The notes under the pieces were generated by a model. It did no database searches and was not told where the DNA came from. It was given only the letters and a program-made list of their open reading frames with translations. Shown piece after piece: positions 6,627 through 24,722 of a stretch of 64,000 bases of DNA (positions are counted from its first letter, which is position 1; each line of letters starts with the position of its first letter). The position numbers and the translations under genes are program-made. This stretch comes from Thermodesulfobacteriota bacterium (GTDB taxonomy: Bacteria; Desulfobacterota; QYQD01): positions 57,401 to 121,400 of the forward strand of contig JBFMFO010000003.1 in assembly GCA_040754095.1 (NCBI GenBank), given 5' to 3'.

Positions 6627-8624
6627 ATGAACCTGTTTAAACGAGAAGAAAACAAGGCAAAGGATTATGAGAGTGAGTTACAGGAGGCCCGGGCGCAGGC
6701 CAGGCGCTGTGAAAGTATCTTATCTGCTATAGCCGCACCCATGTTTGTGACCGATAAAGACCTGGTGATTACCTCTATAAATGACGCCGCGCTGAAGGCC
6801 ATGGGCTACAGTCGGGATGAGGTAGTGGGGAAGATGACCTGTGCCCAGTTTTCCAAGACCCCGCTCTGCGGCACGGCCCAGTGCACGATTAAGAACTGCA
6901 TGCGCACCGGCGACGTAATCAACGGTGAGACGGTGGCCGAGACCAGGGACGGAAGGAAGGTGCCCATCCAGGCGGCCTGTTCGGCCCTCTTTGACGAGCA
7001 GGGAAAGCCCTACGGCGGCATGGAGGTCATCCTAGACCGGACCGAGGCAGTCAAGGCCAAGTGGGAGGTAGATAATATCCTCAAATCCGCCGCCGCGCCC
7101 ATGTTTGTGACCGATAAAGACCTGGTGATCACCTCCATCAATGATGTGGCGTTAAAGGCCATGGGCTACAGTCGGGATGAGGTGGTGGGGAAGATGACCT
7201 GCGCCCAGTTTGCCAGGACTCCCCTCTGCGGCACGGCCCAGTGCACGATAAAGAACTGCATGCGCACCGGCGACGTAATCAACGGTGAGACGGTGGCCGA
7301 GACCAGGGACGGCAGAAAGGTGCCCATCCAGGCGGCCTGTTCGGCCCTCTTTGACGAGCAGGGAAAGCCCTACGGCGGCATGGAGGTCATCATAGACATA
7401 ACAGAGGTCAAACGCCTCCAGAAAGAGGCCGATGAACAACGTGAATACCTGGAAAGACAGGTGGCCATGCTGGTAAAAGAATTACATACCCTGAGCCTCG
7501 GAGACCTGTCGGTAAACATTGTCGCGGAAAGACAGGATGAGATCGCCAGGGTCATAGAAAGTTTAAATAAGGTTATTGAAAGTCTCCGGGAGACCGCCCG
7601 GGTAGCGGAAGCTGTTGCCCGGGGAGACCTGACCGTAGAAATCACACTCAAGTCAGAAAAGGATGTCCTTGGAAATGCCTTTAAGAAAATGATTAACGAC
7701 TTGCGGAATATCGTCGGCAATATAAAAGAGGCGTCCGACAATGTGGCCTCCGGCAGTCAGCAAACCAGCAGTACGGCCGCGCAACTCTCACAGGGTTCTA
7801 CCGAACAGGCGTCCAGTATTGAAGAGGTGTCCAGCTCCATGGAGGAGATGAACAGTACGGTAAATCAGAATGCCGACAATGCCAGGCAGACCACCTCCAT
7901 TGCCGAGAAGGCCGCCGGCAATGCCCAGGAAAGCGGCAAGGCCGTGGCGGAGGCGGTAGGGGCCATGAAACAGATCGCGGAAAAAATATCCATCATTGAA
8001 GAAATCGCCCGCCAGACCAATCTGTTAGCCTTAAATGCGGCCATCGAGGCGGCCCGGGCCGGGGAACATGGGCGGGGGTTTGCGGTGGTGGCGGCCGAGG
8101 TGCGCAAGCTGGCCGAGCGCAGCCAGACCGCAGCCCAGGAGATCGCCAATCTATCGGGGAGCAGTGTTCAGGTGGCCGAACATGCCGGCGCTCTGGTGGC
8201 CGAACTGGTTCCCAATATCCAGAAGACCGCCGAGCTGGTTCAGGAGATAAATGCCTCCAGCACCGAGCAGGCCAGCGGTATCCGGCAGGTGACTCAGTCT
8301 ATTCAACAGCTCGACCAGGTGGTGCAGCAGAATGCCAGCGCTGCCGAAGAGATGTCCGCAACCGCCGAGGAACTTACGTCCCAGGCCGAGCGGCTGCGCG
8401 AGTCCGTTAATTTCTTCAAGCTGGATGACCAGGGTGGTCAGGGGATGAAACAATCGGGAGCCGGGCGTAGTCCCCGTGCCGACATCCCTAAACTGTCTGC
8501 CCACAAACCGGCGCGCCCCGGCGCATCTGCGAGCGGCAGTGTGACTAAGCCGCAGATAACAACCGGGGTTGATATAGTCCTGGGTAAGAATGATATGGAC
8601 GACCGGGAGTTTGAAAGAATTTAA
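6627..8624 (+). CDS. Cytoplasmic methyl-accepting chemotaxis protein with two tandem Cys-rich PAS-like modules, HAMP and MCP signalling domain
   Basis: Strong RBS AGAGGAGG. No TM segments. Two 120-aa repeats each carry [23 protein letters not shown]. The MCP tip motif is [37 protein letters not shown]. The C-terminal tail ends REFERI. Confidence 0.9.
6727..7410 (+). repeat. Tandem direct duplication (two 360-bp copies, about 95% nucleotide identity) inside the MCP gene
   Basis: 6727-7050 versus 7087-7410. The 3' halves are almost base-for-base identical. Confidence 0.85.
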
Positions 8625-8761
8625 TCCACAGATTACGCAGATTACACAGATATTCGTGAGTTATTGGGTTAAATCCCCCGTAGCTTGCTGCGGGGTAGTT
8701 CATTTTTTCCTTAATAAATTTTTTCGCTTACCGATAAATGAGTATAGCTCATGGCTCATAG

Positions 8762-10687
8762 TTGAAGGCTAAAAGCTCAAGAGGTTTTTCTCCATTGGAT
8801 GAGCAGCGGGATATAACAAAGGAACTGGATGAATGTCAGAGGCATCTGACGCAGTTATGTGCCGACATTGAGCCGGAATTTTTGCAGCTTGGCCGGGAGC
8901 TTGAGTCTGTTTTTCACCGGGCCCAGGATCTTTCAGAACAGGCCAGGGGGGCAGTCTATCTGCACGCTACGGCGCATCTTCGAGAAGAGGAACCGGCCCC
9001 CGCCTCAGGCGGACATCTCCGAAAGGTTATAGACCTGTTTCTGGATGTGAGGGATATTTTTAATACGTCACTTGATGCCCTGCGTACCACGATTGAGGAG
9101 TCTGCAAAGGCTGTCAGGCATATTTTCAATATAGGGAAAGAACTGGAAAGCCTGAAGAGCGGGCAAAATGCCCTGGAGAGGCTGGCCGTTATAACCAGAA
9201 TACTGGGTATTTCTACCCGCATCGAGTGCGGCCGTCTTGGAGATATGGGCAGCGGGTTTATTTTTTTATCGGATCAAATAAGTAATTTTTCCGGTGCGCT
9301 TTCCAAGTATGCATCTGACTTTGAGACCGAGGTAAAACAGGTATTGGCAAATATTGAGGAGGCAGAGACATCCGTGGCTGCCCGTCTGAAAATCCAACGT
9401 AAAGAATCTGATCGGATTTCACAACAAATTATGGGTGTTTTAGATATGGTAGATATGGCATCCGCACAGATGACCCGGCTTTCCGAACAGATTGATCACT
9501 TTTCCGAAAGGATACTCCGGGAGGTCGGAGAGATTGTATCCGCCTTGCAGTTTCAGGATATAACCAGGCAGCAGGTTGAACACGTACAGGAGACCCTGAC
9601 AGAGATAGGATGCTCTCTGGACGGGAAAAATCTGAAAAAATGTACATCAGAAGAACTGAGCATTGTTTATAGGAACTTAGCTGTACAGCTTTCACAACTT
9701 CGTAACGTGAGAAGCGAAATTACTACCGCCGGCCAAAACATAATGACTGCCCTTGAAGAGATCGGCCGGGAAATCGAAGGACATGTAAGGCATGTCGCCG
9801 CGGCCATAGGTGAGACGAGCGGGGGCAAGGGTGATAATGCACTGGCTATGCTTGAGCCCCAGATGGAGGCGCTGGGACAGCAACTGAAAAATAGTTTTTT
9901 GCTCAGCGAGGTATTGTTTAAGACCATCGGTAATGTGTCAGGCCTGGTAGAGCGGATCGGAAGCAATCAAGCCAAAATCAATAAGACACGCCTGGATATG
10001 AAGATCCTGGCCCTTAATGCCCAAGTACAGGCGGCAAGACTGGGAGGGGATGGACGCGCACTTTCTGTACTGGCTGAAGATATGCAGCATCTTTCGGATT
10101 CCTGGAGTGCGGTGGCCGAAGAGACGGCCTCCCTACTCCAGAATGCCGTTAATGTGGCGGCCGACCTGAAAGACAAACTGGAAGATGTATTGGAACATTG
10201 CCGGAGCCAGACCGCAAAAAGCCAGGAACGGGCCTCTAATGCCGTGCTTCTCCTGCAGACTGCCAGCGACAAGACAGGGAGCGCCGTTGAGTCCATTAAT
10301 CAAGCCAGTCGTTCATTGGGAGAGGATGTTACGGCGTTAGGGAAGACCATAAAATTCCCTCAACTTGCTGAAAGCGGCCTGGAAAGGACTATATCGCACT
10401 TAGAACATCTGCAGGATGAAATCGGCAAGAGATTATCACCGGAGGAGAGACGGCTTATTAACGGGGCATCGACGCTGGATAGAACAGCCGAACGCTATAC
10501 CATGGAGAGTGAACGCAGGATGCACACTCATGCCCTGCAGCAACTTAAACCGGTCGCAGATGCGCCGGGGTGTACTGATGTCCATGCTGTCGAACGTCAC
10601 GCCTCGGCGCGTGTTCCACTTGAAAAGGATGCGCAGATAAAAGCGACAGGCACAGATGACATGGGAGACAATGTGGAGTTGTTTTAA
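8762..10687 (+). CDS. MCP-like cytoplasmic protein with two signalling-tip-like motifs (divergent chemoreceptor)
   Basis: 641-aa ORF, probably with a TTG start. Canonical tip motif ILALNAQVQAARLGGDGRALSVLAEDMQHLSDS at about residue 415. Degenerate tip-like motif ITRILGISTRIECGRLGDMGSGFIFLSDQISNFS at about residue 130. No HAMP, no TM. Confidence 0.6.
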   Translation: MKAKSSRGFSPLDEQRDITKELDECQRHLTQLCADIEPEFLQLGRELESVFHRAQDLSEQARGAVYLHATAHLREEEPAPASGGHLRKVIDLFLDVRDIFNTSLDALRTTIEESAKAVRHIFNIGKELESLKSGQNALERLAVITRILGISTRIECGRLGDMGSGFIFLSDQISNFSGALSKYASDFETEVKQVLANIEEAETSVAARLKIQRKESDRISQQIMGVLDMVDMASAQMTRLSEQIDHFSERILREVGEIVSALQFQDITRQQVEHVQETLTEIGCSLDGKNLKKCTSEELSIVYRNLAVQLSQLRNVRSEITTAGQNIMTALEEIGREIEGHVRHVAAAIGETSGGKGDNALAMLEPQMEALGQQLKNSFLLSEVLFKTIGNVSGLVERIGSNQAKINKTRLDMKILALNAQVQAARLGGDGRALSVLAEDMQHLSDSWSAVAEETASLLQNAVNVAADLKDKLEDVLEHCRSQTAKSQERASNAVLLLQTASDKTGSAVESINQASRSLGEDVTALGKTIKFPQLAESGLERTISHLEHLQDEIGKRLSPEERRLINGASTLDRTAERYTMESERRMHTHALQQLKPVADAPGCTDVHAVERHASARVPLEKDAQIKATGTDDMGDNVELF

Positions 10688-10689
10688 AA

Positions 10690-10850
10690 ATAGCTGTCAG
10701 CTATCAGCAGTCAGCGGTCAGCATGAAGTCGGTCCACCGTTCACTGTTGACCGTTTACCGAAAGAAAATGTCGGACAACGGTTAACGGATAACAGATAAC
10801 AAACATGCTGATAGCTGAACGCTGATAGCTAAAATGGGGAGGGATCAACA
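10690..10850. repeat. Mosaic intergenic repeat, reverse-complement copy of 19840-19990
   Basis: ctgtcagctatcagcagtcagcggtcagcatg ... ccgtttaccgaaagaaaatgtcggacaacggttaacggataac ... gctgatagctgaacgctgatagc. Near-identical inverted copy at 19840-19990. Related copy at 38560-38680. Confidence 0.75.
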
Positions 10851-11188
10851 TGGCTTGCATGCTTAGCGACGTTGACGGAAAGCCGGTGTTAAAGCTGACG
10901 GGTGCAGTCGGTATCGCCGAAGGCGCGGAATTAAAAGGGGCCCTGCTGAGGCTTATTGAATCTACAGAAAATCCTACGGTAGCCATGGATGGAGTTACAG
11001 AGGTCGATGTCTGCACTTTGCAACTTCTATTTGCAACTCAAAAGAGCGCCGCCAAAGCCGGTAAGTCGCTTAATTTGGCGGACATCCCCGAGCCGTTTAA
11101 TCAGGCAGCAGAATTGGCAGGAATGGCTGACCTCTTTGGGCTTAAAATTCGAAATCCGAAGCACGAAATTCGAGACAATACCAAATGA
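10850..11188 (+). CDS. STAS-domain protein (anti-sigma-factor-antagonist-like) in the che cluster
   Basis: RBS GGGGAGGG. Reads KLTGAVGIAEGAELKGALLRL ... VDVCTLQLLFATQKSAAKAGKSL, a STAS/SpoIIAA-like fold signature. The 3' end and stop codon lie inside a MITE terminal repeat, so the C-terminus is uncertain. Confidence 0.65.
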   Translation: MACMLSDVDGKPVLKLTGAVGIAEGAELKGALLRLIESTENPTVAMDGVTEVDVCTLQLLFATQKSAAKAGKSLNLADIPEPFNQAAELAGMADLFGLKIRNPKHEIRDNTK

Positions 11189-11496: not shown

Positions 11497-11862
11497 ATGG
11501 CTAAGACAATTATGACCGCCGACGATTCAGCCAGCGTCCGGCAGATGGTAAGTTTCACCCTTAAACAGGCCGGTTACGAGGTCATCGAAGCGGCGGACGG
11601 TAAAGATGCCCTGACCAAGTTGAACGGCACGCAGATAGACATGCTGATTACCGACCTCAATATGCCCAACCTGGATGGGATCAGCCTGATCAAGGGTGTG
11701 CGCGGGATGCCTAACCATAAGTTCATCCCGATCATTATGCTGACTACAGAGTCTCAGGAGAGCAAGAAGGCTGAAGGCAGAACAGCCGGGGCCTCCGGAT
11801 GGATCGTTAAGCCGTTTAAGCCGGATCAGCTCCTGGCGGTGGTTAAAAAAGTATTAAGATAA
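11497..11862 (+). CDS. cheY: Chemotaxis response regulator CheY
   Basis: 121-aa single REC domain (ADDSASVR ... DMLITDLNMPNLDGISLI ... KPF). Confidence 0.9.
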   Translation: MAKTIMTADDSASVRQMVSFTLKQAGYEVIEAADGKDALTKLNGTQIDMLITDLNMPNLDGISLIKGVRGMPNHKFIPIIMLTTESQESKKAEGRTAGASGWIVKPFKPDQLLAVVKKVLR

Positions 11863-12107: not shown

Positions 12108-12425
12108 ATGAAAAACTTCTTCGTTTATATCCTTTGCAGTAAACGGAATGGCACTTTGTATACCGGCGTGACGTCGAACTTAATCAAACGGGTATATGAA
12201 CATAAGAGTGATTTAGTTGATGGGTTTACAAAGAAATATAATGTCCACTGTCTGGTTTGGTATGAAATGCATGAGACAGCTGAGGCAGCTATTACCAGAG
12301 AGAAACAAATAAAGAAATGGAATCGCAAGTGGAAACTAAAACTTATCGAGGAGTATAACCCTGAATGGGATGATTTATATAAAGCTCTTTGTGAAGAGAC
12401 TGGATTCCCGTTTTCACGGGAATGA
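12108..12425 (+). CDS. GIY-YIG nuclease superfamily protein (small UPF0213/YhbQ-like)
   Basis: 105 aa. Reads FFVYILCSKRNGTLYTGVTSNLIKRVYEH ... with a conserved downstream E (YEMHETAEAAITREKQIKKWNRKWK). The final codons and the stop lie inside a second hairpin. Confidence 0.75.
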   Translation: MKNFFVYILCSKRNGTLYTGVTSNLIKRVYEHKSDLVDGFTKKYNVHCLVWYEMHETAEAAITREKQIKKWNRKWKLKLIEEYNPEWDDLYKALCEETGFPFSRE

Positions 12426-12511: not shown

Positions 12512-14638
12512 ATGGAGGTATTAGCCGTGAACCCCGAAGATAAACACGCCCAGACCTATTTGGAAGAAGCCAGGGAGCTGCTGGCCGAACTGGAAGAGGC
12601 CGTGCTTGAGTTGGAAAACAACATGTCCGACATGGAGCTTGTGAACCGTATTTTTCGAGCCATGCATACAATTAAAGGTTCCGGGGCCATGTTCGGTTTT
12701 GACGCCGTGGCCGGGTTTACCCACCACGTGGAGACCGTCCTGGATCAGGCGCGAAACGGCGTCATCCCGGTTACGAATGACCTCACCGGCCTGATTCTGG
12801 CGGCGCGGGATGAGATCTCATCCATGCTGTTCGGCGCATCTGAGGCGGATTCGGGCGGCCGTGAGGAAATTATCGCCGCATTGCGTTCGCTTTTACCCGG
12901 AGAGGCAAATGAGGGAGAGGCGACAGGCCCAGAGACGAACGAGGCAGTCCCTGATTCGGGGGCCGAAGTTCAACCGGAAAGCAGCAGGGGCATGAGAGCT
13001 ACATACCGTATCCGTTTTATTCCTGGAAGCGATACGCTTCGCTATGGGAACGACCCTATCGCCTTGCTTAACGAACTGGACAACCTCGGAGAGCTGCGGG
13101 TCACCGCTCTTTCCGATCGCATCCCCTGCCTGGAAGAAATCAATTATGATGATTGTTATCTCGGATGGGACGTGACTCTTATATCTGAGGCCGATATCAA
13201 CGCGATCCGCGATGTCTTTATATTTGTGGAAGACAGCAGTGAGGTGACCATTGAAAAGATAGCAAATGCGAATACGATTGGCGATGCGGCAACTGAAAAG
13301 ATTGGTCAGATACTGGTTGCTCGTGGAGATGTCCCTGCCGAAGCGGTGGAAAGGGCCGCAAAGGATCAAAAAAAGATCGGGGAGATACTGGTCGAGACCG
13401 GTACGGTGTCTAAGGAAAAGGTTAATTCAGCCCTGGTCGAACAGCATATTATCCGGCAGCAGGCGGAAAAGCATAGCGCCAGCAGCATCCGCGTGGCCGC
13501 CGAAAAGCTTGACCAGCTCATTAATATAGTGGGTGAGTTGGTCACTACGCAGGCCCAACTCACTCAAGCGGCCGGTTCTAACGGGAACTCGGAACTGCTG
13601 ACGGCTGTAGAGAGTGTCGAGCGTCTTACCGGCGAACTGCGCGATTGTGTCCTGGGAGTGCGTATGCTGCCCATTGGCTCCACTTTTGCCAAGTTTAAAA
13701 GATTGGTGCGCGACCTTTCCGTGGCGCTGGGCAAGGAAGTTGATTTTATCACAGAGGGAGACGAGACAGAACTCGATAAAACGGTTATCGAGAAGATCGG
13801 CGATCCCCTGGTTCATCTTATCCGGAATAGCTTAGACCACGGTATTGAGACCCCGGAGAAAAGAGAGGCCACCGGCAAGCCGCGTCGCGGCATAATTCGT
13901 TTGACGGCGGCGCACGCCGGAGGAGAGGTGGTTATATCGGTTGAGGACGACGGCAAGGGGCTTGATACGGAGGCCATCGTCCGTAAGGCCATGGAAAAAG
14001 GGCTGATCGATGACGCGAAGAGCCTCTCCGATTCCCAGATATTTAATCTCATTTTCCAGCCGGGGTTTTCCACCGCTGAAACGGTCACAGATGTCTCAGG
14101 CCGCGGGGTAGGCATGGACGTGGTAAGACGGGAGATAGAGGCCCTGCGGGGTTCGTTTGATATTCAGAGTAAAAAGGGGCGAGGCACCACGGTTACGGTC
14201 AGACTGCCCCTGACCCTGGCCATAATCGACGGCCTCCTGGTGGAGTCAGGCCGGGAGCGGTTTGTGATTCCGCTGCATCATGTGCAGGAGTGTGTGGAAT
14301 TGACCGGGCGTGATATTGATAATACCCACGGACGCCATGTGATGAATGTCCGGGACAGGCTTGTTCCTTATGTCCGCTTAAGTGAATTCTTTGTTACGGC
14401 GGATAGAGAAGCGCTATCTATAGAACAGGTCATCGTGGTGCAGGCCGAGGATTTCGTTACAGGCCTGGTTGTGGACAGGATTGTGGGTGAGAAGCAGGCG
14501 GTGATTAAACCTCTGGGCAAGATGTTCAGGCAAGCCGACGGCGTATCCGGGGCTACTATACTGGGTGACGGCACGGTGGCCTTGATTTTGGACGTACCCC
14601 AGATCACACGGTGCGCACAGCGTGAGGAGGCGGCATGA
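12512..14638 (+). CDS. cheA: Chemotaxis histidine kinase CheA
   Basis: HPt motif RAMHTIKGSGAMFGF. HATPase motifs (HLIRNSLDHGIE, VEDDGKGLD, GRGVGMDVV). C-terminal CheW-like domain. The start may instead be the GTG at 12527 (RBS GGAGG). Confidence 0.9.
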   Translation: MEVLAVNPEDKHAQTYLEEARELLAELEEAVLELENNMSDMELVNRIFRAMHTIKGSGAMFGFDAVAGFTHHVETVLDQARNGVIPVTNDLTGLILAARDEISSMLFGASEADSGGREEIIAALRSLLPGEANEGEATGPETNEAVPDSGAEVQPESSRGMRATYRIRFIPGSDTLRYGNDPIALLNELDNLGELRVTALSDRIPCLEEINYDDCYLGWDVTLISEADINAIRDVFIFVEDSSEVTIEKIANANTIGDAATEKIGQILVARGDVPAEAVERAAKDQKKIGEILVETGTVSKEKVNSALVEQHIIRQQAEKHSASSIRVAAEKLDQLINIVGELVTTQAQLTQAAGSNGNSELLTAVESVERLTGELRDCVLGVRMLPIGSTFAKFKRLVRDLSVALGKEVDFITEGDETELDKTVIEKIGDPLVHLIRNSLDHGIETPEKREATGKPRRGIIRLTAAHAGGEVVISVEDDGKGLDTEAIVRKAMEKGLIDDAKSLSDSQIFNLIFQPGFSTAETVTDVSGRGVGMDVVRREIEALRGSFDIQSKKGRGTTVTVRLPLTLAIIDGLLVESGRERFVIPLHHVQECVELTGRDIDNTHGRHVMNVRDRLVPYVRLSEFFVTADREALSIEQVIVVQAEDFVTGLVVDRIVGEKQAVIKPLGKMFRQADGVSGATILGDGTVALILDVPQITRCAQREEAA

Positions 14639-14803: not shown

Positions 14804-16618
14804 ATGAAAGTCAGGATAGGTACAAAACTGGCCGTTGGTTTTGTCATCCCCTTGCTTTCTATGCTGATCATCGGGGGATGGGCCTATTTTGCCAATCGGG
14901 ATGTAGAATCAAGGTCGAGCTTGACAAAGGACGAGAGCATCGTCTTTCACGAGACCGCCCAGCAGATGAAGGTGGACGTTATACAGGTACAACAGTGGCT
15001 ATCGGATATCTCGGCCACGCGGGCGCAGGACGGCCTGAATGATGGTTTTGATAAGGCAGAGGAGCACAGACGATCTTTTTTGGCCGGGCTGAATAAGTTC
15101 AGGGAGATGTTCACCGAGGAAAACAACCAGGAGGGATTGGAACACCTGAAGAAATTGGAAGCAGAATTTAACGCATATCATGCCACCGGGAAAAAGATGG
15201 CCCAGGCTTACATAGAGCACGGGCCGGCCGGCGGAAACAAGCTGATGGCCGAGTTTGATGAGGCAGCAGAGGCCCTGTGGCGCAATCTCAATCCATTGGT
15301 GGAATCACAGACCAAAGAAGTGCATGAGAGTATGGAGGCCATTGTTACCTCGATCAAACGTGTCAATATGGGCGTTATCGTCATCTTGTCTTTAGCCGTT
15401 TTAATAACTGCTGTTGTAGGCATACTTATCGCTCGTCGTATTGTCAGACCAGTCAACCAGCTTCGTGACGTTGCTGATAAACTGGCGGCAGGAGATACCT
15501 CGGTAGAAATCGATATCAAGAGCCGGGATGAGACCGGCGACCTGGCCGCATCATTTAAGAAGATGGTGGCGCAACTGAACGGCCTGCTTGCCGAGATAGA
15601 CCTGCTCACCAGGTCTGCGGTGGAAGGAAAACTCGATACCCGCGGCGATACCGGGAAATTTGGCGGTGATTATGGAAAGATTATCCACGGCATAAACGAT
15701 ACCCTCGATGCTGTAACCGGCCCTCTGAAGACTTCAGCCGAATACGTCCGGCAGATCAGCAGAGGCGACCTCCCGGCAAAGCTTACAGACGACTACAAAG
15801 GCGATTTTAACGAGATCAAGAACAGCCTGAACAGCATGATCGATAATCTTACCGGTTTTGCCGTCAATGTACGGACAGTGGCCGGGCAGGTGGCTGCAGG
15901 CAGCGAGGAGCTTAATGCTGCTGCCACGCAGATGTCCCAGGGCACGTCCGAACAGGCGGCAAGCATCGAGGAGGTATCCAGTTCCATGGAGGAGATGAAT
16001 GCCGCAGTAGTGCAGAATGCGGATAACGCCAAGCAGACGGCGGTTATTGCAAAAGATGCGGCTCAAAATGCCAGGGAGAGTGGTGATGCAGTGGTGCAGG
16101 CGGTAGGGGCCATGAACCAGATCGCGGAAAAAATAACTATTATTGAAGAGATTGCCAGACAGACCAACCTCCTGGCCTTGAATGCGGCCATTGAGGCGGC
16201 CCGGGCCGGAGAGCATGGACGGGGCTTTGCGGTGGTGGCGGCAGAGGTGCGGAAGCTGGCCGAACGCAGCCAGACTGCGGCCCAGGAGATTGCCGATTTA
16301 TCGGGGAGCAGCGTCGAGGTGGCCGAAAGTGCCGGCCGTATGGTAGCTGAACTGGTTCCCAATATACAGAAGACCGCCGATCTCGTTCAGGAGATCAGCG
16401 CTTCCAGCGGAGAGCAGGCCCGGGGGATAGAACAGGTCACCCAGGCCATTGAACAGCTTAATCAGGTGGTGCAGCAGAATACCGGTAGCGCAGAGGAGGT
16501 GGCCATTCCTCCGAAGAGCTTTCCGCTCAGGCAGAACAATTGCTTAATGCGGCAGAGTTTTTCAAGACTGGCGAGGGCGCCCGGCAGACAGCGGCGCATG
16601 CCGGGATCAGGCGCGTAA
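14804..16618 (+). CDS. Transmembrane methyl-accepting chemotaxis protein (2 TM, periplasmic helical sensor, tandem HAMP, MCP domain) with an apparent frameshift at the 3' end
   Basis: RBS AAGGAGG. TM1 [18 protein letters not shown]2 [23 protein letters not shown] tip motif [37 protein letters not shown]. After about 16510 the reading frame yields nonsense ([15 protein letters not shown]), while the -1 frame continues as a normal MCP tail to the DFERF terminus at 16797. Confidence 0.8.
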
Positions 16619-17149: not shown

Positions 17150-18757
17150 ATGAAAGTATCAGTAGGACCAAAGCTTATCGGGGCGTTTGTTTTTCTTGTA
17201 ATCGCCCTGGGTGTGGTCAGCTACACCGGCATCAGGCAGATGGAGGCCATAGACGGGCATCTGATGAACATCTCGGATGTTATTATGAAGCGCGCCATCG
17301 TAGCTAAAGAACTACAACTGCATCTTGCCAATACCGGCTGGGGGGTTATGGAGTTCCTGACCGCGGAGACTACGGCCGAGCGGGATGAGTTGGCCGGCAC
17401 AATCAAGAAGGAGATGGCCGAGGTCAGCGAGCATATGGGCGAGTTGGACGGGATTGCCTCTGCCGAGGTCAAGACACATCTGGCAGAATTTCGTAATTCC
17501 TTTGGTGCGGTGGAAAAGATTATTAACCAGATATTAACCCAGGGCCGGGGCGGCATAAACAAAGAAGTCCAGATGCTCGATACCCAGTTGGATGCGGTTA
17601 TTGATAAAACCATAGCCGGGACAGAGAAGATCGTGGCCGTGGTGGACAGGGAGGTGGAGGCGGCCAAGCTGGCGTCGGATAAAGACGTGGAGTATGGCCG
17701 GAACCTGCTGATGGCAGTGGCCGGGGCAGCCCTGGTGGTGGCCGTGATTATAAACATCTTTATCATTCTCGGCATAAGAAGCTTCAGGCGGACGGCATTG
17801 AGCATAGGGGAAGCGGTAGAAAACGTGGCAGCGGGCGCGGAACAGCTTTCCGCTACGGCCCAGGGGCTTTCACAGGGGGCCACAGAACAGGCGGCGAGCA
17901 TCGAGGAGGTATCCAGCTCCATGGAGGAGATGAATGCGTCTATCTCACAGAATGCGGACAGCGCCGGCCAGACTGCGGCTATGGCTACCAAGGCGGCCGG
18001 CAACGCCAGCGAAGGCGGTCAGGCGGTGACCCAGGCGGTCGGCGCCATGAAGCAGATTGCCGAGAAGACGAGCGTAATCGAAGAGATCTCTCGCCAGACC
18101 AATTTACTGGCCCTGAATGCCGCTATCGAGGCGGCCCGGGCCGGTGAACATGGAAAGGGCTTTGCAGTGGTCGCTTCCGAGGTGAGGAAGCTGGCGGAAC
18201 GGAGCCAGATCGCGGCCCAGGAGATTGCCAACCTTTTAGGCGGCAGCCTCCAGGTGGCCGAACATGCCGGCAAGCTGGTGGAAGAGTTGGTCCCCGCTAT
18301 CCAGAAGACCTCTGAACTTGTTCAGGAGATCAATGCGGCCAGCCGGGAGCAGGCCAGCGGTATCGGCCAGGTCACCCAGGCCATCCAGCAGCTCGACCAG
18401 GTGGTGCAGGCAAACGCAGCCGCCTCTGAAGAACTGGCCTCCACCAGTGAAGAGACGTCCTCGCAGGTGGTTGAGATGCAGCGTAACGTGGATATGTTTA
18501 TCGAGCGGCTGGGAGGACGAAAGAGAGTCAATAAGAAGAACTCGGCGCGAAAAACGAACTCCGGGAACTTCATCGGCCTTACCGGCAAGCTCAAGGGAAA
18601 ACCCAGTACAGAATCGGTTAAGGACTTAACCGTCGCCTCGGTCGTAGATGCGCCGGGGCGTGCGGAAGGGGGCCAGACGGCCGCGAGGAGCCAGGATGCT
18701 GTAGGTGTTATTCTTGATCTGGATAAGCAGAACGACCAGAATTTCGAAAGATTTTGA
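17150..18757 (+). CDS. Transmembrane methyl-accepting chemotaxis protein (2 TM, ~150-aa periplasmic domain, MCP signalling domain, no clear HAMP)
   Basis: RBS AAGGAGG. TM1 [17 protein letters not shown]2 [27 protein letters not shown] tip motif [38 protein letters not shown]-terminal tail NDQNFERF. Confidence 0.9.
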
Positions 18758-19135: not shown

Positions 19136-19672
19136 ATGGACGAGATCAGGCAGTACCTTACCTTTGTTTTGAACAGAGAAGATTTTGCCCTGGAGACCTC
19201 GAGGGTAAAAGAGGTGCTGGAGTACACAACCGTTACCCGGATACCGCGCATGCCGGATTTTCTCTGCGGCGTGATAAACTTAAGGGGCAACGTAGTCCCG
19301 GTTATGGATATGCGGTTAAAACTGGGGATGCCGGCGGCAGAGCGAACCGTCGATACCTGTATTGTGATTGTAGAAGTGGAGCTTGATGGGGAGACAGTCA
19401 CGATAGGATGTCTTGTGGATTCAGTCAAAGAAGTCCTGGAGATACCAGCCGGTGAGATCGAACCGGCGCCCAAGATGGGGATGCGCCTCAGGGCTGACTT
19501 TATCCAGGGCATGGCCAGGCAGAACGAAGGCTTTATTATCATTCTGGATATCAACCGCATCCTTTCCATCGATGAAATAACGCTCATGTCCGCCGCCGCC
19601 GGACCGGCGATTGAGACGGATGTAGCCGTTCAAAAGACATCTGGTGATGTCCAGGCAATGTCATTGACTTAA
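19136..19672 (+). CDS. cheW: Chemotaxis coupling protein CheW
   Basis: RBS AAGGAG. CheW-like domain (YLTFVLNREDFALETSRVKEVLE ... GVINLRGNVVPVMDMR ... IVIVEV). About 20-aa C-terminal extension. Confidence 0.9.
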   Translation: MDEIRQYLTFVLNREDFALETSRVKEVLEYTTVTRIPRMPDFLCGVINLRGNVVPVMDMRLKLGMPAAERTVDTCIVIVEVELDGETVTIGCLVDSVKEVLEIPAGEIEPAPKMGMRLRADFIQGMARQNEGFIIILDINRILSIDEITLMSAAAGPAIETDVAVQKTSGDVQAMSLT

Positions 19673-19996: not shown

Positions 19997-20878
19997 ATGG
20001 CGGACATAAGCCCCGGCTTAAATACGAATATCCCCATTTTTAATCCCCCTGACATGTCTGACCAGGAGTTTGCCCTGTTCAGCGATCTTGTCTATCGCCA
20101 TGCCGGGATAACCCTTCCCCCTGCTAAAAGGAACATGCTTGTTTCACGGCTGCTAAAACGCCTCAGGGCCCTTGGGATGCGTTCTTTTTTAGATTATTAC
20201 AATTACATAACCAGCCCGGCGGGCCGTCAGGCCGAATTCCCACATACTATCGATATGGTCAGCACTAACAAGACCGAGTTTTTCCGGGAGGCAGGCCATT
20301 TTAAGTTCTTAAAAGAGGCGGTCTTGCCGGAGTTGGCGGCCCGGGTACGCCGTCAGGGTAAGGGGAAAATCACGGCCTGGAGCGCAGGTTGTTCCTCGGG
20401 AGAAGAACCTTATACCTTAACTATGGTCATGATAGAGTATCTTAAGGTTTGTGGGGGCGGTGAGTTTTCTATCCTGGCTACGGATATATCACATCGCATG
20501 TTGGATAAAGGCCGGCGCGCAGTTTATTCAGAGGTCGATATCCAGAGTGTCCCCCCTGATTACCTTCGGAAATATTTCATGCGAGGAATAAAGGGACAGG
20601 AAGGTTATTATCGTGTGGCGCCGGAGTTGCGTAACCGCGTGAAATTTCAGCATTATAATTTTATGGACGACTCCGTCCCTTTCCACGGGTCTATGGATTT
20701 TATCTTTTGCCGCAATGTCATGATATATTTCGACCAGGGGACCAGAACCATGTTGGTCAAGAAGTTTTATAAGCATCTCGTTGACGGAGGGTATCTGTTC
20801 ATCGGCCACTCGGAGACCCTGCACGGGATGGAAACGGATTTTAAACTGGCCAGCCCCACGGTTTACAGGAAGATGTAA
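19997..20878 (+). CDS. cheR: Chemotaxis protein methyltransferase CheR
   Basis: N-terminal helical domain (FALFSDLVYRHAGITL). SAM-binding motif (AWSAGCSSGEEPYTLTM). About 293 aa. Confidence 0.9.
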   Translation: MADISPGLNTNIPIFNPPDMSDQEFALFSDLVYRHAGITLPPAKRNMLVSRLLKRLRALGMRSFLDYYNYITSPAGRQAEFPHTIDMVSTNKTEFFREAGHFKFLKEAVLPELAARVRRQGKGKITAWSAGCSSGEEPYTLTMVMIEYLKVCGGGEFSILATDISHRMLDKGRRAVYSEVDIQSVPPDYLRKYFMRGIKGQEGYYRVAPELRNRVKFQHYNFMDDSVPFHGSMDFIFCRNVMIYFDQGTRTMLVKKFYKHLVDGGYLFIGHSETLHGMETDFKLASPTVYRKM

Positions 20879-21133: not shown

Positions 21134-24094
21134 TTGATAGCCCGGGGACAAGGGATGGCAGATTTTTTAAAAGACCAGATGGACTATGTCCTATTCTTCT
21201 ACGGGCTGTCGTTCGCCCTGCTGGCCATAGTGTGCTGGTTCCTGAGCCGGAGGAGATACGGTCACTTGCCGTGGCGATGGCTGGGGCTGTTTGCCGCTGC
21301 CTACGGCGTCAGCAACTGGCTGTGTATGGCGGCCATGAGCACCGGGCATGACGTGTTTTTCGTAGCGCGGCTCGGCCTTATGATCCTGGCCTTTGCATTC
21401 CTTGTGGAGTTTGGCCGGGCCGGCATGGCGGCTCTCAGGGGGCGGGCGCCGGGCCGGTGGGTTTTTATCCCGTTATTGTGTCTGGCTGCCCTGGGCGGCT
21501 TGGCCGGGCTAAGAGGACTTCTCTCTTCTACCCGCTACACCTTGGGACTGGCGGGCGGGTTATGGGCGGCATGGGTCCTGTTTCAGGCCTCAAAGGCCCG
21601 GGGTATGAAAGGCCGCCCTTTGGCGGTTGCCGCTCTGGCCATGGCCGGTTGCGGCCTGACCATAGGCACGGTGGTGGAAGGCGCTTCCTTTTTCCCTGCC
21701 TCGGCGCTTAACCGGGAGACATTTCTAGCGGTTGCGGGTGTCCCGATCCAATTGATCCGGGGTATTCTGGCCATTATCGTTGCTATTGCCGTAGCAGCCC
21801 ATTTTCGGATCTTCTGTCGCTATGATGCGGACGGGGATGACTGTAAGTGGAGATCCTGTTACATGCCGCGGATGGGGCTCGCCCTGTTTTTTGTCTTGGC
21901 CGGCGGGTGGGCACTTACGGAAGCGGTGGGCAGATATGCAGAGGGAGACCTACGTTTTCATCTGCTTAGCCGCGTCAAGACCATAGCCGACACCGTGGAC
22001 CTTGGTCATGTAACGAGACTGACGGGCACACCGGCCGACATCGGCACGCCGGACTACAATTGCCTGAAGGGGCGGCTTATTAATGTCAGGGCCGCCAATC
22101 CGGACTGCCGGTTTGTTTATTTAATGGCCAGGAGGGACGGCAAGGTTATTTTCCTCGCAGACTCCGAACCGGAGGGATCCCGGGACTGTTCGCCGCCGGG
22201 CCAGCTCTACGGGGAGGCCAGTCCTGAACTACTGGGTTTTTTTACATCCGGCAAGCCGTTTGTAGAGGGACCGCTTACCGACCGATGGGGAGACTGGGTC
22301 TCTGGTTTTTCCCCGGTCCGTGACCCCCGGACCGGGCGGGTATTGGCGGCCGTGGGTATAGACATTGACGCCGGGGATTGGCAGCAAAAAATCATGACCC
22401 ATCGCCTGGCGCCTATAATTATCACCATGCTGGCGGCCGTACTTCTCCTCGGTTTCTTCGTGAGCCGGGAAAGGATGCTGGCAGCCAAACAACAGGCCGA
22501 GGTGGCCAACCGGGCTAAAAGTGAATTTCTAGCTATGATGAGCCATGAAATCCGTACCCCCATGAACGGGGTGCTGGGCATGCTTGATCTGGCGCTCGAT
22601 GGCGAGATGCCTTTGCGGCAACGGGAATACCTTACTATGGCAAGATCGGCGGCCGATTCCCTGCATAGTCTGCTTAACGACATCCTGGATTTTTCCAGGA
22701 TCGAGGCGGGGAAACTGGTTATGGAAGAGACGGACTTCAGCCTCCGTTCGGTTATCAACTCGGTGGTTGACCTCCTGAGATTGCCGGCGCAGGGAAGAGG
22801 CCTGGCGATCCGGCGGGATATTCCTGACGCCGTTCCCGATGCCCTGTCCGGAGACGCGGGCCGCTTGAGACAGATATTGCTTAATCTCATAGGAAACGCC
22901 GTCAAGTTTACCAAAAGCGGATATGTACTGATTAGCGCCGGGGTGGAGGAAAGGACTGGGTCGGGTATGTTGCTCCATTTCTCGGTAAAAGATACCGGGA
23001 TCGGAATTCCCAGAGATAAACTCGAAACTATTTTTGATGCCTTTATCCAGGGCGAGGCCTCGAACAACCGCCGGTATGGAGGGGTGGGGCTTGGGTTAAG
23101 CATATCGAGACGGCTTGTGGAGATGATGGGCGGCAGTATCTGGGTGGAAAGCGAGGAAGGCAGGGGAAGCATATTCCATTTTACGGTCAGGTTTGGTCTG
23201 CCGCGGGGGCTTCCGGAAAGAGAGTCTCAGTCCTCTGACCACTTGAGTGAAGCAAGAGAAGGGACAGCGGCGACGCCACATACCCTGTCCAAGACTAATT
23301 TCAGGGTCCTGTTGGCTGAGGATGACCTTATCAACCAGGAGGTAGCAAGGGGCATCCTCCTGAAACATGGCCATATGCCAACGGTCGTCTCGGACGGTAA
23401 AGCGGCCGTAGAGACATGGGGGAAAGGGAATTTTGACCTCATCTTTATGGACATCCAGATGCCGGTTATGGACGGGTTTGAGGCCACGCGCCTGATACGG
23501 GAGAAAGAAAAGGCGACGGGAGCGCATATTCCCATTATTGCCATGACTGCCTCCGCCCTGAAGGGTGACCGGGAAAGGTGTCTGGAGGCGGGTATGGACG
23601 GTTATATCTCCAAGCCGGTCAAGGCGGCGGAGCTTTTACAACTGATAGAGGCCACCGTGGTGAATAAGACGGCGAAAGATAGGGAAAACAGTTATTTTAC
23701 GCCATCTGTTGATTTTGCAGCCGGGAATCCGCCGGCAGAGAGCAAGGCGCTCGATGTATCAGGCGCGCTGGATAACCTCGGGGGTGACGTGAACCTTCTA
23801 AAGGAGGTTACGAACCTGTTTTTGGAGAAGGTTCCGTTTGAGATTCAGGGATTGGGAGGGGCGATCTCCTCCGGAGATGAGCGGCTCATAGAGCGCCATG
23901 CGCATAAGATAAAAGGAATGGCCGCCAACATCGGGGCAAAAAGGATTGCCGACAGCGCCTTTCGCATCGAACTGGCGATCAGAAAGGATGATATCTCCGG
24001 GTGTGGCGCATTGTTTGAAAGGATGGGAGAAGAATTAGAGGCATTTAAGAAGTCGGCGGGTGAGGCCGATTGGAATAATATGGGAGGGGAATGA
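21134..24094 (+). CDS. Hybrid sensor histidine kinase: multi-pass TM N-terminus, extracytoplasmic sensor domain, HisKA, HATPase_c, REC, C-terminal HPt
   Basis: About 6 N-terminal TM helices, a ~190-aa hydrophilic segment and another TM. H-box MSHEIRTPMNGVLGML. N/G boxes (LLNLIGNAVKFT, DTGIGI, GGVGLGLSI). REC (VLLAEDDLINQ ... DLIFMDIQMPVMDGFEA ... SKP). HPt (HKIKGMAANIGAKRI). The start may be the ATG at 21155. Confidence 0.85.
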   Translation: MIARGQGMADFLKDQMDYVLFFYGLSFALLAIVCWFLSRRRYGHLPWRWLGLFAAAYGVSNWLCMAAMSTGHDVFFVARLGLMILAFAFLVEFGRAGMAALRGRAPGRWVFIPLLCLAALGGLAGLRGLLSSTRYTLGLAGGLWAAWVLFQASKARGMKGRPLAVAALAMAGCGLTIGTVVEGASFFPASALNRETFLAVAGVPIQLIRGILAIIVAIAVAAHFRIFCRYDADGDDCKWRSCYMPRMGLALFFVLAGGWALTEAVGRYAEGDLRFHLLSRVKTIADTVDLGHVTRLTGTPADIGTPDYNCLKGRLINVRAANPDCRFVYLMARRDGKVIFLADSEPEGSRDCSPPGQLYGEASPELLGFFTSGKPFVEGPLTDRWGDWVSGFSPVRDPRTGRVLAAVGIDIDAGDWQQKIMTHRLAPIIITMLAAVLLLGFFVSRERMLAAKQQAEVANRAKSEFLAMMSHEIRTPMNGVLGMLDLALDGEMPLRQREYLTMARSAADSLHSLLNDILDFSRIEAGKLVMEETDFSLRSVINSVVDLLRLPAQGRGLAIRRDIPDAVPDALSGDAGRLRQILLNLIGNAVKFTKSGYVLISAGVEERTGSGMLLHFSVKDTGIGIPRDKLETIFDAFIQGEASNNRRYGGVGLGLSISRRLVEMMGGSIWVESEEGRGSIFHFTVRFGLPRGLPERESQSSDHLSEAREGTAATPHTLSKTNFRVLLAEDDLINQEVARGILLKHGHMPTVVSDGKAAVETWGKGNFDLIFMDIQMPVMDGFEATRLIREKEKATGAHIPIIAMTASALKGDRERCLEAGMDGYISKPVKAAELLQLIEATVVNKTAKDRENSYFTPSVDFAAGNPPAESKALDVSGALDNLGGDVNLLKEVTNLFLEKVPFEIQGLGGAISSGDERLIERHAHKIKGMAANIGAKRIADSAFRIELAIRKDDISGCGALFERMGEELEAFKKSAGEADWNNMGGE

Positions 24095-24320: not shown

Positions 24321-24722
24321 ATGAGGACATTGATTGTAGAGGACGATTTTATCGCCCGGCGGATTTTAAGGGATATCCTTTCACCTTATGGAGACTGTGA
24401 TATCGCTATTGACGGCGACGAGGCCATCCAGGCCTTCCGGCTGGCCTATGAGGACAGCAAACCCTACGATCTAATCTGTATGGACATAATGATGCCGGAT
24501 ATTGATGGGCAGGAGGCGCTCCGGCGGATCCGTGAAATAGAAAAGGACGCAGGTATAAGACCTTCGGAGGAAGTAAAGGTAATTATGACTACTGCACTCA
24601 GCGATCCAAAGAACGTCGTCGAGGCATTCTACAAAGGAGGTGCTACCTCATATATCGTAAAGCCCGTTAACAAACAAAAATTTCTGGAAGAGGTGCGGAA
24701 TCTGGGACTAATTGGCGGTTAG
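24321..24722 (+). CDS. Single-domain response regulator (CheY-like)
   Basis: REC motifs LIVEDDFIARR ... DLICMDIMMPDIDGQEAL ... VKP. 133 aa. Confidence 0.85.
   Translation: MRTLIVEDDFIARRILRDILSPYGDCDIAIDGDEAIQAFRLAYEDSKPYDLICMDIMMPDIDGQEALRRIREIEKDAGIRPSEEVKVIMTTALSDPKNVVEAFYKGGATSYIVKPVNKQKFLEEVRNLGLIGG

Follow-up and report, generated by a model that had tools for sequence, protein, structure and literature searches.

Chemoreceptors with two signalling domains are already known, in the form of DosM of the F9 class of chemosensory systems (PMC7534058, PMC9321776). The F9 protein DosM (VC1403) of Vibrio cholerae is rod-shaped, with both ends carrying a tip, and spans a double-layered cytoplasmic array of 35 nm (PMC7534058). 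Sensor domains are lacking in 98% of DosM homologues, and the F9 gene order is DosM-CheW3-CheB-.-CheR-CheY-CheA, CheW3 being a concatenated triple CheW (S6 Table, PMC9321776). The phosphatase CheZ is recognized by the signature AXXFQ, contiguous with the catalytic DXXXQ, on its descending helix (PMC7750401). For CheT, a distant phosphatase of the CheZ-like kind, DXXXQ likewise serves as the accepted signature, and the STAS protein CheS of Sinorhizobium meliloti, encoded directly upstream of cheY1-cheA, binds CheA and speeds the turnover of phosphorylated CheY1 (CheY1~P) (PMC12654446). Here we analyse a gene, called gene X below, whose product resembles both DosM and CheZ. It lies in a chemotaxis (che) cluster of a Thermodesulfobacteriota bacterium, within a window of 64,000 nucleotides, which is the whole stretch of DNA that was analysed (assembly GCA_040754095.1, contig JBFMFO010000003.1, positions 57,401 to 121,400 of the forward strand; coordinates below are those of the window). 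An earlier description made without database searches, the sequence-only reading, had presented the gene as encoding a possible tandem-signalling-domain receptor, with one canonical methyl-accepting chemotaxis protein (MCP) tip and a second, degenerate tip-like block upstream of it.

Two signalling hairpins in tandem

Residue numbers refer to the version of the protein with 630 amino acids (aa), counted from the TTG codon at 8795. The gene and its main parts are the following:

8795..10687, strand +, gene X: soluble two-hairpin MCP-like protein of 630 aa; the alternative TTG at 8762 would give 641 aa
8813..9616, strand +, hairpin module 1: residues ~7-274, degenerate MCP signalling domain (Pfam, family profile, AlphaFold2 (AF2) and Foldseek)
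9617..9646, strand +, junction loop between the hairpins: residues 275-284, a helix break in the AF2 model, of variable length across the family
9647..10474, strand +, hairpin module 2: residues ~285-560, MCP signalling domain above the Pfam threshold

The C-terminal half matches the Pfam domain MCPsignal (PF00015) with 51 bits against a gathering threshold of 34.6 (E 1.9e-13), and its family profile aligns with the solved structure 2CH7 through the hairpin tip (E 9e-28). The N-terminal half alone reaches 22.6 bits with the same domain (E 1.1e-4, positions 20-165 of the 172 of the profile), which is under the gathering threshold. We compared the two halves on the basis of an alignment of 59 full-length homologues of gene X (A1), in which the N module corresponds to residues 75-296 and the C module to residues 297-562, and used a profile of the N half alone of the family (A2) for searches. 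Comparison of the N module with the C module by hhalign gave a probability of 99.4% (E 6.8e-21, score 113.6, 217 columns), with the tips in register; reversed-sequence controls scored 25-31, with E-values of 4e-5 to 7e-4. Searched against the PDB, A2 matched the chemoreceptors TM14 (3G67, E 1.8e-16), TM1143 (2CH7, E 5.6e-15) and Tsr (1QU7, E 2e-11). The tip was again in register, the pattern RILGISTRIESARLG..G..F..LA aligning with the solved chemoreceptor tip, while unrelated helical or coiled-coil proteins reached E 3e-6 at best. The reversed-sequence controls and the PDB profile matches rule out that the first tip is due to chance or to a coiled-coil artefact.

The AF2 model of the N half has a mean predicted local distance difference test score (pLDDT) of 80, with a peak of 90-95 around the tip. 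When this model was submitted to Foldseek, the top 15 PDB matches were all chemoreceptors, and superposition on the 102-residue tip fragment of Tsr (6s1k_E) gave a template modelling (TM) score of 0.92 and a root-mean-square deviation of 1.1 Å. The DSSP strings of the AF2 models were unfit for placing the turns because they show no helix break at either tip, the canonical one included; turns were placed by Foldseek superposition. We conclude that the product of gene X consists of two MCP signalling hairpins in tandem, derived from an internal duplication.

The upstream block proposed by the sequence-only reading is thus of the MCP type, as seen from the N-half profile, the comparison of N and C modules and the superposition of the AF2 model on Tsr. 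The searches that it had suggested led to the same result: the N half aligns to MCP signalling domains (A2 against 3G67, E 1.8e-16) and is predicted to form a chemoreceptor hairpin with a tip of its own, rather than part of a single continuous hairpin. The two blocks had been placed about 290 aa apart; the measured distance is 268 aa. Of the proposed 'tandem-signalling-domain receptor', the two tandem hairpins are supported and the word 'receptor' is not, since the protein has neither a sensor domain nor canonical methylation sites and each tip lacks some of the canonical residues.

Tips and packing of the hairpins

9203..9241, strand +, tip 1, LGISTRIECGRLG: residues 137-149, predicted turn near D150, aligned in register to Tsr, TM14 and TM1143
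10007..10045, strand +, tip 2, LALNAQVQAARLG: residues 405-417, turn near G418, aligned to Tsr and TM1143

Tip 1 retains the equivalents of Tsr E385, R388, G390, G393, G395 and F396 and has lost those of N381 and F373. Tip 2 retains the equivalents of L378-A382, V384, R388 and G390 and has lost those of E385, E391, G395 and F396, so that the losses of canonical residues in the two tips are complementary. E144 of tip 1 is listed as invariant in the gene X family. In the region of tip 2, N408 is invariant, and A409, G420 and A427 are at least 90% conserved among the 59 members of A1, the alignment to which all conservation values below refer.

The lengths of the arms are fixed across the family: E144 and D255 are separated by 111 residues (standard deviation (s.d.) 1.5), and Q298 and N408 by 109 residues (s.d. 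1.9). The spacing from D255 to Q298, which contains the junction, is variable (mean 45, s.d. 4.3). The helix arms of both hairpins comprise ~125-135 residues each. In the full-length AF2 model the junction forms an ordered turn (pLDDT 77-83), while the other loops are below 55, and the predicted TM score (pTM) is 0.58 for the full-length protein against 0.46 for the N half. Four near-equal conserved helices joined by a short variable loop, the ordered junction, the higher pTM and the complementary tip losses make it more likely that the hairpins lie next to each other, forming a pseudo-dimer within one chain whose two tips share the same end, than that they form an extended rod as in DosM. This preference is only modest, because AF2 predictions of monomers are biased to intramolecular packing. 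The 34H-like receptor arrays of F8 systems are ~20 nm high (PMC11253619, PMC7184735). Since the receptors of the cluster are mostly transmembrane and 34H-like, one hairpin length would fit such an array and a 38-nm rod would not.

A CheZ-like signature on the first hairpin

9524..9586, strand +, CheZ-like helix, VGEIVSALQFQDITRQQVEHV: residues 244-264, with the core A250-x-x-F253-Q254-D255-x-x-x-Q259 at 9542-9571

The most conserved element of the family, located close to the end of hairpin 1 that is remote from its tip, is the motif A250-L-Q-F253-Q254-D255-I-T-R-Q259, which has the AXXFQ and DXXXQ parts of the CheZ signature. E. coli CheZ carries A-Q-D-F-Q-D143-L-T-G-Q147 at this place (sequence checked against 1KMI). 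Q252, D255 and Q259 are invariant, and I256, T257, R258 and H263 are at least 90% conserved. The invariant columns of A1 further include E26, N408, Y568, M570 and F630, and those conserved to at least 90% include T569, E573, R574, H577 and L629. The sequence-only reading had missed the AXXFQ-DXXXQ signature, and with it a conserved RYTMxxERxxH motif and the C-terminal DNVELF peptide described below; together these features would point to dephosphorylation of phosphorylated CheY (CheY~P) rather than to sensing.

After MCPsignal, Pfam CheZ (PF04344) is the second commonest match among the family members, 11 of the 59 matching at E <= 0.01. A search seeded with E. coli CheZ brought up nothing but enterobacterial sequences, with identities of 71% or more (mostly 78% or more). 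The resulting enterobacterial CheZ profile was too shallow, and the E-values of 3e-4 to 5e-3 that it gave in hhalign lie within the coiled-coil background. Decisive for the link to CheZ was instead a profile of the C-terminal (tail) module of the single-hairpin relatives described below (A3), which was searched against 5.8 billion proteins. This search retrieved P0312 at E 2e-3, a bona fide CheZ with 52.7 bits over the full Pfam CheZ profile and the motif SFQDITGQ. With the motif in register, hhalign against P0312 gave 87.5% for the N module of the gene X family (E 3.6e-6) and 94.3% for A3 (E 1.1e-7). As controls, reversed P0312 gave E 0.19-0.28 and the three canonical MCPs of the window E 0.06-0.8. 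For comparison, hhalign of P0312 against enterobacterial CheZ gave 95.4%. On these profile comparisons, the motif helix of gene X is about as convincingly related to CheZ as divergent CheZs are to each other.

The position of the motif on the hairpin can be compared with that of a D in canonical MCPs. Counted from the start of LALNA, this D is found at +96 in the MCPs of the cluster (LDQVVQQNA), at +103 in Tsr (MDRVTQQNA) and at +118 (D255) in the FQDITRQ that gene X shares with its single-hairpin relatives. Once differences in heptad class (34H, 36H, ~40H) are taken into account, these positions agree to within one residue and mark a common region of the C-terminal arm. The active-site helix of CheZ may be a remodelled MCP D-x-V-T-Q-Q-N-A element, of which the gene X family might represent an intermediate.

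C-terminal tail and methylation sites

10493..10525, strand +, RYTMESERRMH motif: residues 567-577; Y568 and M570 invariant, T569, E573, R574 and H577 at least 90% conserved
10559..10684, strand +, predicted disordered linker and C-terminal peptide: linker residues 589-624, DNVELF at 10667-10684

A motif of the RYTMxxERxxH type is also present in the single-hairpin and 179-aa relatives. The last ~42 residues (589-630) have a pLDDT below 50 in the AF2 model, and the DNVELF that ends them is conserved (F630 invariant, L629 at least 90%). DNVELF resembles the CheZ peptide DDLLDSLGF and equally the pentapeptide NFERF of the cluster MCP encoded at 17150-18757. Pentapeptides that tether CheR or CheB are aromatic at both position 2 and position 5 (NWETF type), and NFERF is a canonical example. 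The gene X product departs from this rule: its last five residues are NVELF, and the family members have V, I or L at position 2. Because both ends of hairpin 2 are at the junction, the tail is expected to emerge near D255 and Q259, like the C-terminal peptide of CheZ near its active site.

Methylation sites were searched with the consensus [ASTG][ASTG]xx[EQ][EQ]xx[ASTG][ASTG]. This strict motif has no match in the gene X product, against 3-4 in each of the three MCPs of the cluster. To judge from this motif search, the gene X product is a non-methylated derivative of a signalling domain and not an adapting receptor.

Distribution, synteny and relatives

We scanned one genome per GTDB species by pattern match followed by confirmation, and found at least 561 confirmed loci among at least 600 pattern matches. 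Members of the gene X family have ~570-650 aa and 18-29% identity end to end; the five closest homologues reach 57-91%. Among the matches listed, the family is present in Desulfobacterota (Geobacter, Trichlorobacter, Desulfopila, Syntrophobacter, Desulfovibrio and Desulfomicrobium), and also in Nitrospirota (including Candidatus Magnetominusculus), Ignavibacteria, Melioribacteraceae and others. Cultured organisms with an orthologue include Desulfopila aestuarii DSM 18488 (L005) and Trichlorobacter thiogenes ATCC BAA-34 (L023).

Synteny was counted in the best 80 related loci. Gene X is followed by STAS-CheY-CheA in 42 of them and by CheY-CheA in 25, a truncated version being seen in most others; (STAS)-CheY-CheA thus follows in 67 of the 80, and a STAS gene comes next in at least 44. 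The annotated examples agree, and every CheW of these loci is single-domain. Gene X thus heads a widely conserved operon in which it is followed by the CheS-like STAS gene, cheY and cheA, and then by genes for MCP, CheW, CheR and CheB. A survey of homologues had been proposed by the sequence-only reading; the family members align with gene X end to end and co-occur with (STAS)-CheY-CheA. NCBIfam holds no model for the family, and in the accessible literature we found no paper on MCP-CheZ hybrids, nor on a double-signalling-domain protein other than DosM. The gene X family is large and apparently undescribed, with its own operon and a CheZ-type signature in a receptor hairpin.

Shorter relatives share with gene X the ALQFQDITRQ..EHV helix, the YTMxxER motif, the xVxLF C-terminus and the (STAS)-CheY-CheA synteny (for example P0087, P0102 and P0244). 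Where gene X has two MCP hairpins with partly degenerate tips, these relatives contain a single canonical one or lack the hairpin altogether. The single-hairpin relatives (360-440 aa) carry one fully canonical MCP tip, with FQDITRQ exactly at +116 from the tip, the same spacing as in hairpin 1. They match Pfam CheZ with E-values of 9e-8 to 1e-4, and P0087, with 32.6 bits, is above the gathering threshold. In a betaproteobacterium, one of them heads a CheY-CheA-MCP-CheW operon beside flagellar genes. The A3 search also retrieved stand-alone relatives of 179 aa with the same three motifs (E 1e-24), which JGI names CheZ. All these relatives are database entries for which we found no describing paper.

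One 179-aa relative, P0262 (L090, 7733-10868, a JGI metagenome contig), has the helix ALQFQDITRQKLEHV, the motif SYTMESERRIH and a tail ending in SAVLF, and no MCP tip. Its gene is found in the arrangement STAS-X-CheY-(probable CheA), with a canonical CheY-CheZ-MotA-MotB cluster at a distance of a few kb. By its motifs, P0262 is a minimal form of the gene X module.

More divergent members of the family are located on alphaproteobacterial megaplasmids. A tblastn search of the gene X product against plasmids gave a divergent family member from Novosphingobium, and not DosM; a candidate from Azospirillum proved to be an unrelated MCP. The very divergent member on the megaplasmid of Novosphingobium sp. 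RL4 (L086, 8806-10689) has the motif LQVGDSTRQRLEHV, RYTMAREREIH and a DDGLF tail; both of its tips are strongly degenerate, D and Q are kept, and it is encoded after MCP-?-CheR-CheB. A 574-aa member on plasmid p2 of Shinella sp. H4-D48 (L087, 7386-9110) is annotated as 'type VII secretion target'. This label is probably a misannotation, since the gene encodes a helical-hairpin protein and lies divergently beside STAS-REC-CheA-CheW-MCP.

The precomputed annotations of P0001-P0004, close homologues of the gene X product, include PF28175, and PF28017 is annotated on some relatives of the single-hairpin or fragment type (P0117, P0245, P0265, P0271 and P0285). A recent Pfam entry (PF28175 or PF28017) may already cover part of the gene X product.

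Start codon and solubility

8867..8893, strand +, TExxFLxLG motif: residues 25-33; E26 invariant, F29, L30 and G33 at least 90% conserved

The open reading frame extends over 8762..10687 on the + strand and encodes 641 aa from its first TTG, as confirmed by the listing of open reading frames and by translation. The stop codon TAG lies in frame directly 5' of it (8759-8761), and the first in-frame ATG is found only near residue ~212, after ~210 codons free of ATG. These positions, together with the conserved TExxFLxLG upstream of the ATG, require a TTG start, as the sequence-only reading had supposed. Of the two TTG codons, the one at 8795 seems more likely than that at 8762. A sequence resembling a ribosome-binding site, AGAGG, is located at 8780-8784, with a spacing of 10 nt to TTG 8795, and the NCBI start of P0001, a near-identical protein of 630 aa from a Thermodesulfobacteriota metagenome-assembled genome, corresponds to the same codon.

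Pfam searches with the whole protein and with its N half gave no match to HAMP or to a sensor domain, and no transmembrane segment was detected, the maximal Kyte-Doolittle mean over 19 residues being 1.22. The absence of HAMP and transmembrane segments had been noticed in the sequence-only reading. The gene X product is a soluble all-helical protein.

Upstream of gene X, in the interval that separates it from the PAS-MCP gene, a terminator-like hairpin is present on the + strand at 8676-8695. Of its 8 pairs 6 are GC, and a tail rich in T comes after it. It is consistent with gene X beginning its own transcription unit; the terminator scan of the window as a whole gave no enrichment over shuffled sequences.

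The chemotaxis cluster of the window

Gene X lies between an MCP gene and a STAS gene inside the che cluster, as first read from the sequence and now placed by Pfam. The cluster consists of:

6627..8624, soluble PAS-PAS-HAMP-MCP gene (Pfam), directly upstream of gene X
10850..11188, strand +, STAS gene (CheS-like; Pfam STAS_2, E 1.1e-10), conserved downstream partner of gene X
11497..11862, strand +, cheY (Pfam Response_reg, E 1.5e-26), whose product is the presumed substrate of the gene X product
12108..12425, strand +, open reading frame of 105 aa with a GIY-YIG nuclease domain (Pfam, E 4e-17), between cheY and cheA
12512..14638, strand +, cheA, with Hpt, dimerisation, HATPase and CheW-like domains (Pfam)
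14804..16618 (strand +) and 17150..18757, MCP genes downstream of cheA
19136..19672, strand +, cheW: 178 aa, single CheW domain, E 3e-53 by phmmer against the CheW of locus L081; the only cheW of the window
19997..20878, cheR, following cheW
21134..24094 and 24321..24722, strand +, hybrid histidine kinase (HisKA-HATPase-REC-Hpt) and stand-alone receiver, between cheR and cheB
24930..25994, cheB, at the end of the cluster

The cluster contains no separate cheZ, cheC or cheX. The GIY-YIG reading frame looks like a mobile insertion, because cheY is directly followed by cheA in related loci. The kinase and receiver between cheR and cheB suggest a phosphorelay branch attached to the che system. The three MCPs (6627-8624, 14804-16618 and 17150-18757) look like members of the 34H class, the receptor class associated with F8 systems, since the D of their LDQVVQQNA is at +96 as against +103 in Tsr. 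At their C-terminal ends, the MCP 17150-18757 has the pentapeptide NFERF and the PAS-MCP EFERI. The MCP 14804-16618 has no pentapeptide, and a 3' frameshift or a divergent tail is suggested for it. In view of the 34H-like receptors and the NFERF pentapeptide, the CheA of the cluster is expected to be of class F8.

Comparison with described proteins

Like DosM, the gene X product is soluble, has two tandem MCP signalling domains and no sensor domain, is of similar size and is encoded in a che cluster. DosM is reported from Briegel et al. 2016, as related in PMC7534058 and PMC9321776. It is regarded as a structural component of the array rather than as a sensor. DosM is always encoded beside a triple-CheW gene, whereas gene X heads X-STAS-CheY-CheA and the CheW is single-domain, and the taxa listed for DosM and F9 differ from those of the gene X family. 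SMART calls both domains of DosM MA, while the N-domain of gene X is under the Pfam threshold. Particular features of the gene X product are the signature of CheZ, the RYTMxxER motif and the conserved peptide at its C-terminus, and it is set apart from DosM by gene context and by description. Membership of the F9/DosM systems is ruled out by the gene context, with no CheW3 and another gene order. The type of architecture is known from DosM; the gene X protein, to judge from its gene context and taxonomic range, belongs to a different family.

CheZ (PF04344; E. coli, 1KMI) and the gene X product are alike in having a helical hairpin as the basis of a four-helix bundle, and in carrying AXXFQ-DXXXQ on the descending helix, close to the open end of the bundle. 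They also share a flexible linker, predicted as disordered in gene X, a short acidic and hydrophobic C-terminal peptide with an aromatic or hydrophobic end, and genes beside cheY and cheA. In contrast with CheZ, the hairpin of gene X is of the MCP signalling type: it has roughly twice the length of the CheZ bundle, and its tip is that of a receptor. The catalytic-type helix is separated by a complete second MCP hairpin from the tail, which is DNVELF in gene X and DDLLDSLGF in CheZ. CheT of Sinorhizobium and Agrobacterium, a distant CheZ-like protein known by its DXXXQ, is small and has no MCP hairpin, unlike the gene X product, while the order STAS-CheY-CheA of the gene X operon is that of cheS-cheY1-cheA in the same two genera (PMC12654446). 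The rhizobial IcpA/MCP514 was ruled out as a counterpart, as this first gene of its operon encodes a protoglobin-coupled 36H receptor (PMC8466855).

Another atypical soluble MCP-like protein is BB0569 of Borrelia burgdorferi (NF052273), which has 590 aa, is polar and essential for chemotaxis, and is clustered with cheA1 and cheY2 (PMC10703414, PMC5318424). The gene order there is cheW2-bb0566-cheA1-cheB2-bb0569-cheY2. Residues 75-266 of the gene X product are weakly similar to NF052273 (E 5.5e-7). Only 5 of the 59 family members match it (best E 4e-8), with scores far below the cutoff, and the relationship is thus uncertain.

Discussion

We propose, with a probability of roughly 0.5, that the gene X product is an MCP-derived CheY~P phosphatase that docks in the receptor array and terminates the signal there. 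One or both tips would insert the protein among the receptors on the CheA/CheW baseplate. D255 and Q259 would act like D143 and Q147 of CheZ, entering the active site of CheY~P and speeding its hydrolysis, and the disordered C-terminal linker with DNVELF, close to these residues, would tether CheY~P in the manner of the CheZ peptide. As a result, signals would be terminated at the array, in a system whose cluster has no separate cheZ, cheC or cheX. A role as phosphatase or scaffold seems more likely than a role as sensor, and a scaffold or decoy in the array is a possible function. Structural and regulatory roles as a pseudo-receptor are rivals that need not exclude dephosphorylation of CheY~P.

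Several points weigh against a phosphatase at the array. Phosphatase activity, binding and localisation of family members are all predicted from sequence or models, and the hairpin arrangement was derived only indirectly. Both tips depart from the canonical one, so that docking in the array is not assured. The gene X product scores 19.3 bits with Pfam CheZ, under the gathering threshold of 30.7, and hhalign against enterobacterial CheZ alone gives E 5e-3, within the coiled-coil background, although the motif is in register. Canonical MCPs have D-x-V-T-Q-Q-N-A at an approximately homologous site (D481...Q485 in Tsr, LDQVVQQNA in the cluster); because they share such a pair, D-x3-Q alone is no proof of catalysis and might be a remodelled structural element. 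Finally, NVELF is like the NFERF that tethers CheR or CheB, and the tail may bind one of these rather than CheY.

The likeness to DosM could mean that the protein is a scaffold of the same kind: a homodimeric rod of ~38 nm with a tip at each end, stapling two CheA/CheW baseplates into a double-layered array, possibly with the soluble PAS-MCP as partner, the QFQDITRQ motif then serving another role such as partner binding. Two tandem signalling domains without a sensor are what 98% of DosM homologues have (PMC9321776), two arms of 125-135 residues would measure ~38 nm, near the 35-nm height of the F9 array (PMC7534058), and the PAS-PAS-HAMP-MCP directly upstream echoes the PAS receptors proposed as partners of DosM. 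We nevertheless consider this reading unlikely, given that no CheW3 exists in the 80 loci or the window, where all CheWs are single-domain, and that the order X-STAS-CheY-CheA and the taxa differ from those of F9. Most receptors of the cluster are, moreover, transmembrane and 34H-like, with arrays of ~20 nm (PMC11253619) to which a 38-nm rod is unfit, both tips are partly degenerate in a complementary manner, and the CheZ signature, the most conserved feature, is left unexplained. The geometry of the hairpins could instead describe a non-catalytic single-chain pseudo-receptor, in which one intramolecular four-helix bundle mimics an MCP dimer at lattice positions and tunes the activity or coupling of CheA, or recruits the STAS/CheS protein. 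The near-equal helices, tight spacings (111, s.d. 1.5; 109, s.d. 1.9) and short variable junction agree with it, as do the loss of complementary sets of canonical residues in the tips, the higher pTM of the full-length model (0.58 against 0.46) and the ordered turn at the junction (pLDDT 77-83); cytoplasmic MCPs are known to join polar arrays via their hairpin (PMC8466855). However, this geometry was deduced indirectly from a monomer AF2 prediction, which favours intramolecular packing. It also gives no account of the invariant D/Q motif, the CheZ homology or the tethered C-terminal peptide, features that are also present in 179-aa relatives without any MCP tip. A purely non-catalytic pseudo-receptor is in our view improbable too.

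Least plausible by far is an ordinary class IV cytoplasmic chemoreceptor, in which the N half would be a sensor of the four-helix-bundle type and its tip-like block mere noise. The N half does stay below the MCPsignal gathering threshold (22.6 against 34.6 bits), coiled coils give spurious matches and the controls reached E ~1e-4. Yet the N-half profile matches solved MCPs at E 1e-16, ten orders of magnitude beyond unrelated coiled coils, the N and C modules match at E 7e-21 as against ~1e-4 for the controls, and the AF2 model lies within 1.1 Å of the Tsr tip. In addition, the tip of single-hairpin relatives is fully canonical and its spacing from the motif is identical, and the gene X product has no methylation sites. 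We can hardly envisage this explanation.

A wider proposal can also be made, which we put forward tentatively and with more doubt than assent. Gene X, the single-hairpin relatives and the 179-aa relatives might together be a clade, not described before, of CheY~P phosphatases of the CheZ type that use the chemoreceptor hairpin as their framework and descend from it, with the catalytic D and Q at the site of the MCP D-x-V-T-Q-Q-N-A, linking CheZ to MCPs by descent. The two-hairpin form would be a pseudo-dimer in the lattice that places one phosphatase site in the array. It might provide the phosphatase that seems to be lacking from the 34H/F8-like systems of Desulfobacterota (among them Geobacter and Trichlorobacter), Nitrospirota and Ignavibacteria.

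How signals are terminated is poorly resolved for chemotaxis outside the enteric bacteria. CheZ has been counted as absent from many lineages, and three Geobacter genomes, for instance, were scored as having none (PMC2577667). At present the genes of the family carry the label 'methyl-accepting chemotaxis protein', 'hypothetical protein' or 'type VII secretion target', and would be miscounted as receptors in chemoreceptor censuses. If an array-resident CheZ-type phosphatase is confirmed in this family, it would be the missing CheY~P phosphatase of a large group of chemosensory systems of anaerobes. It would also represent a second, independent use of the double-signalling-domain architecture, so far known only from DosM in F9, and provide a concrete evolutionary route from a receptor hairpin to CheZ.

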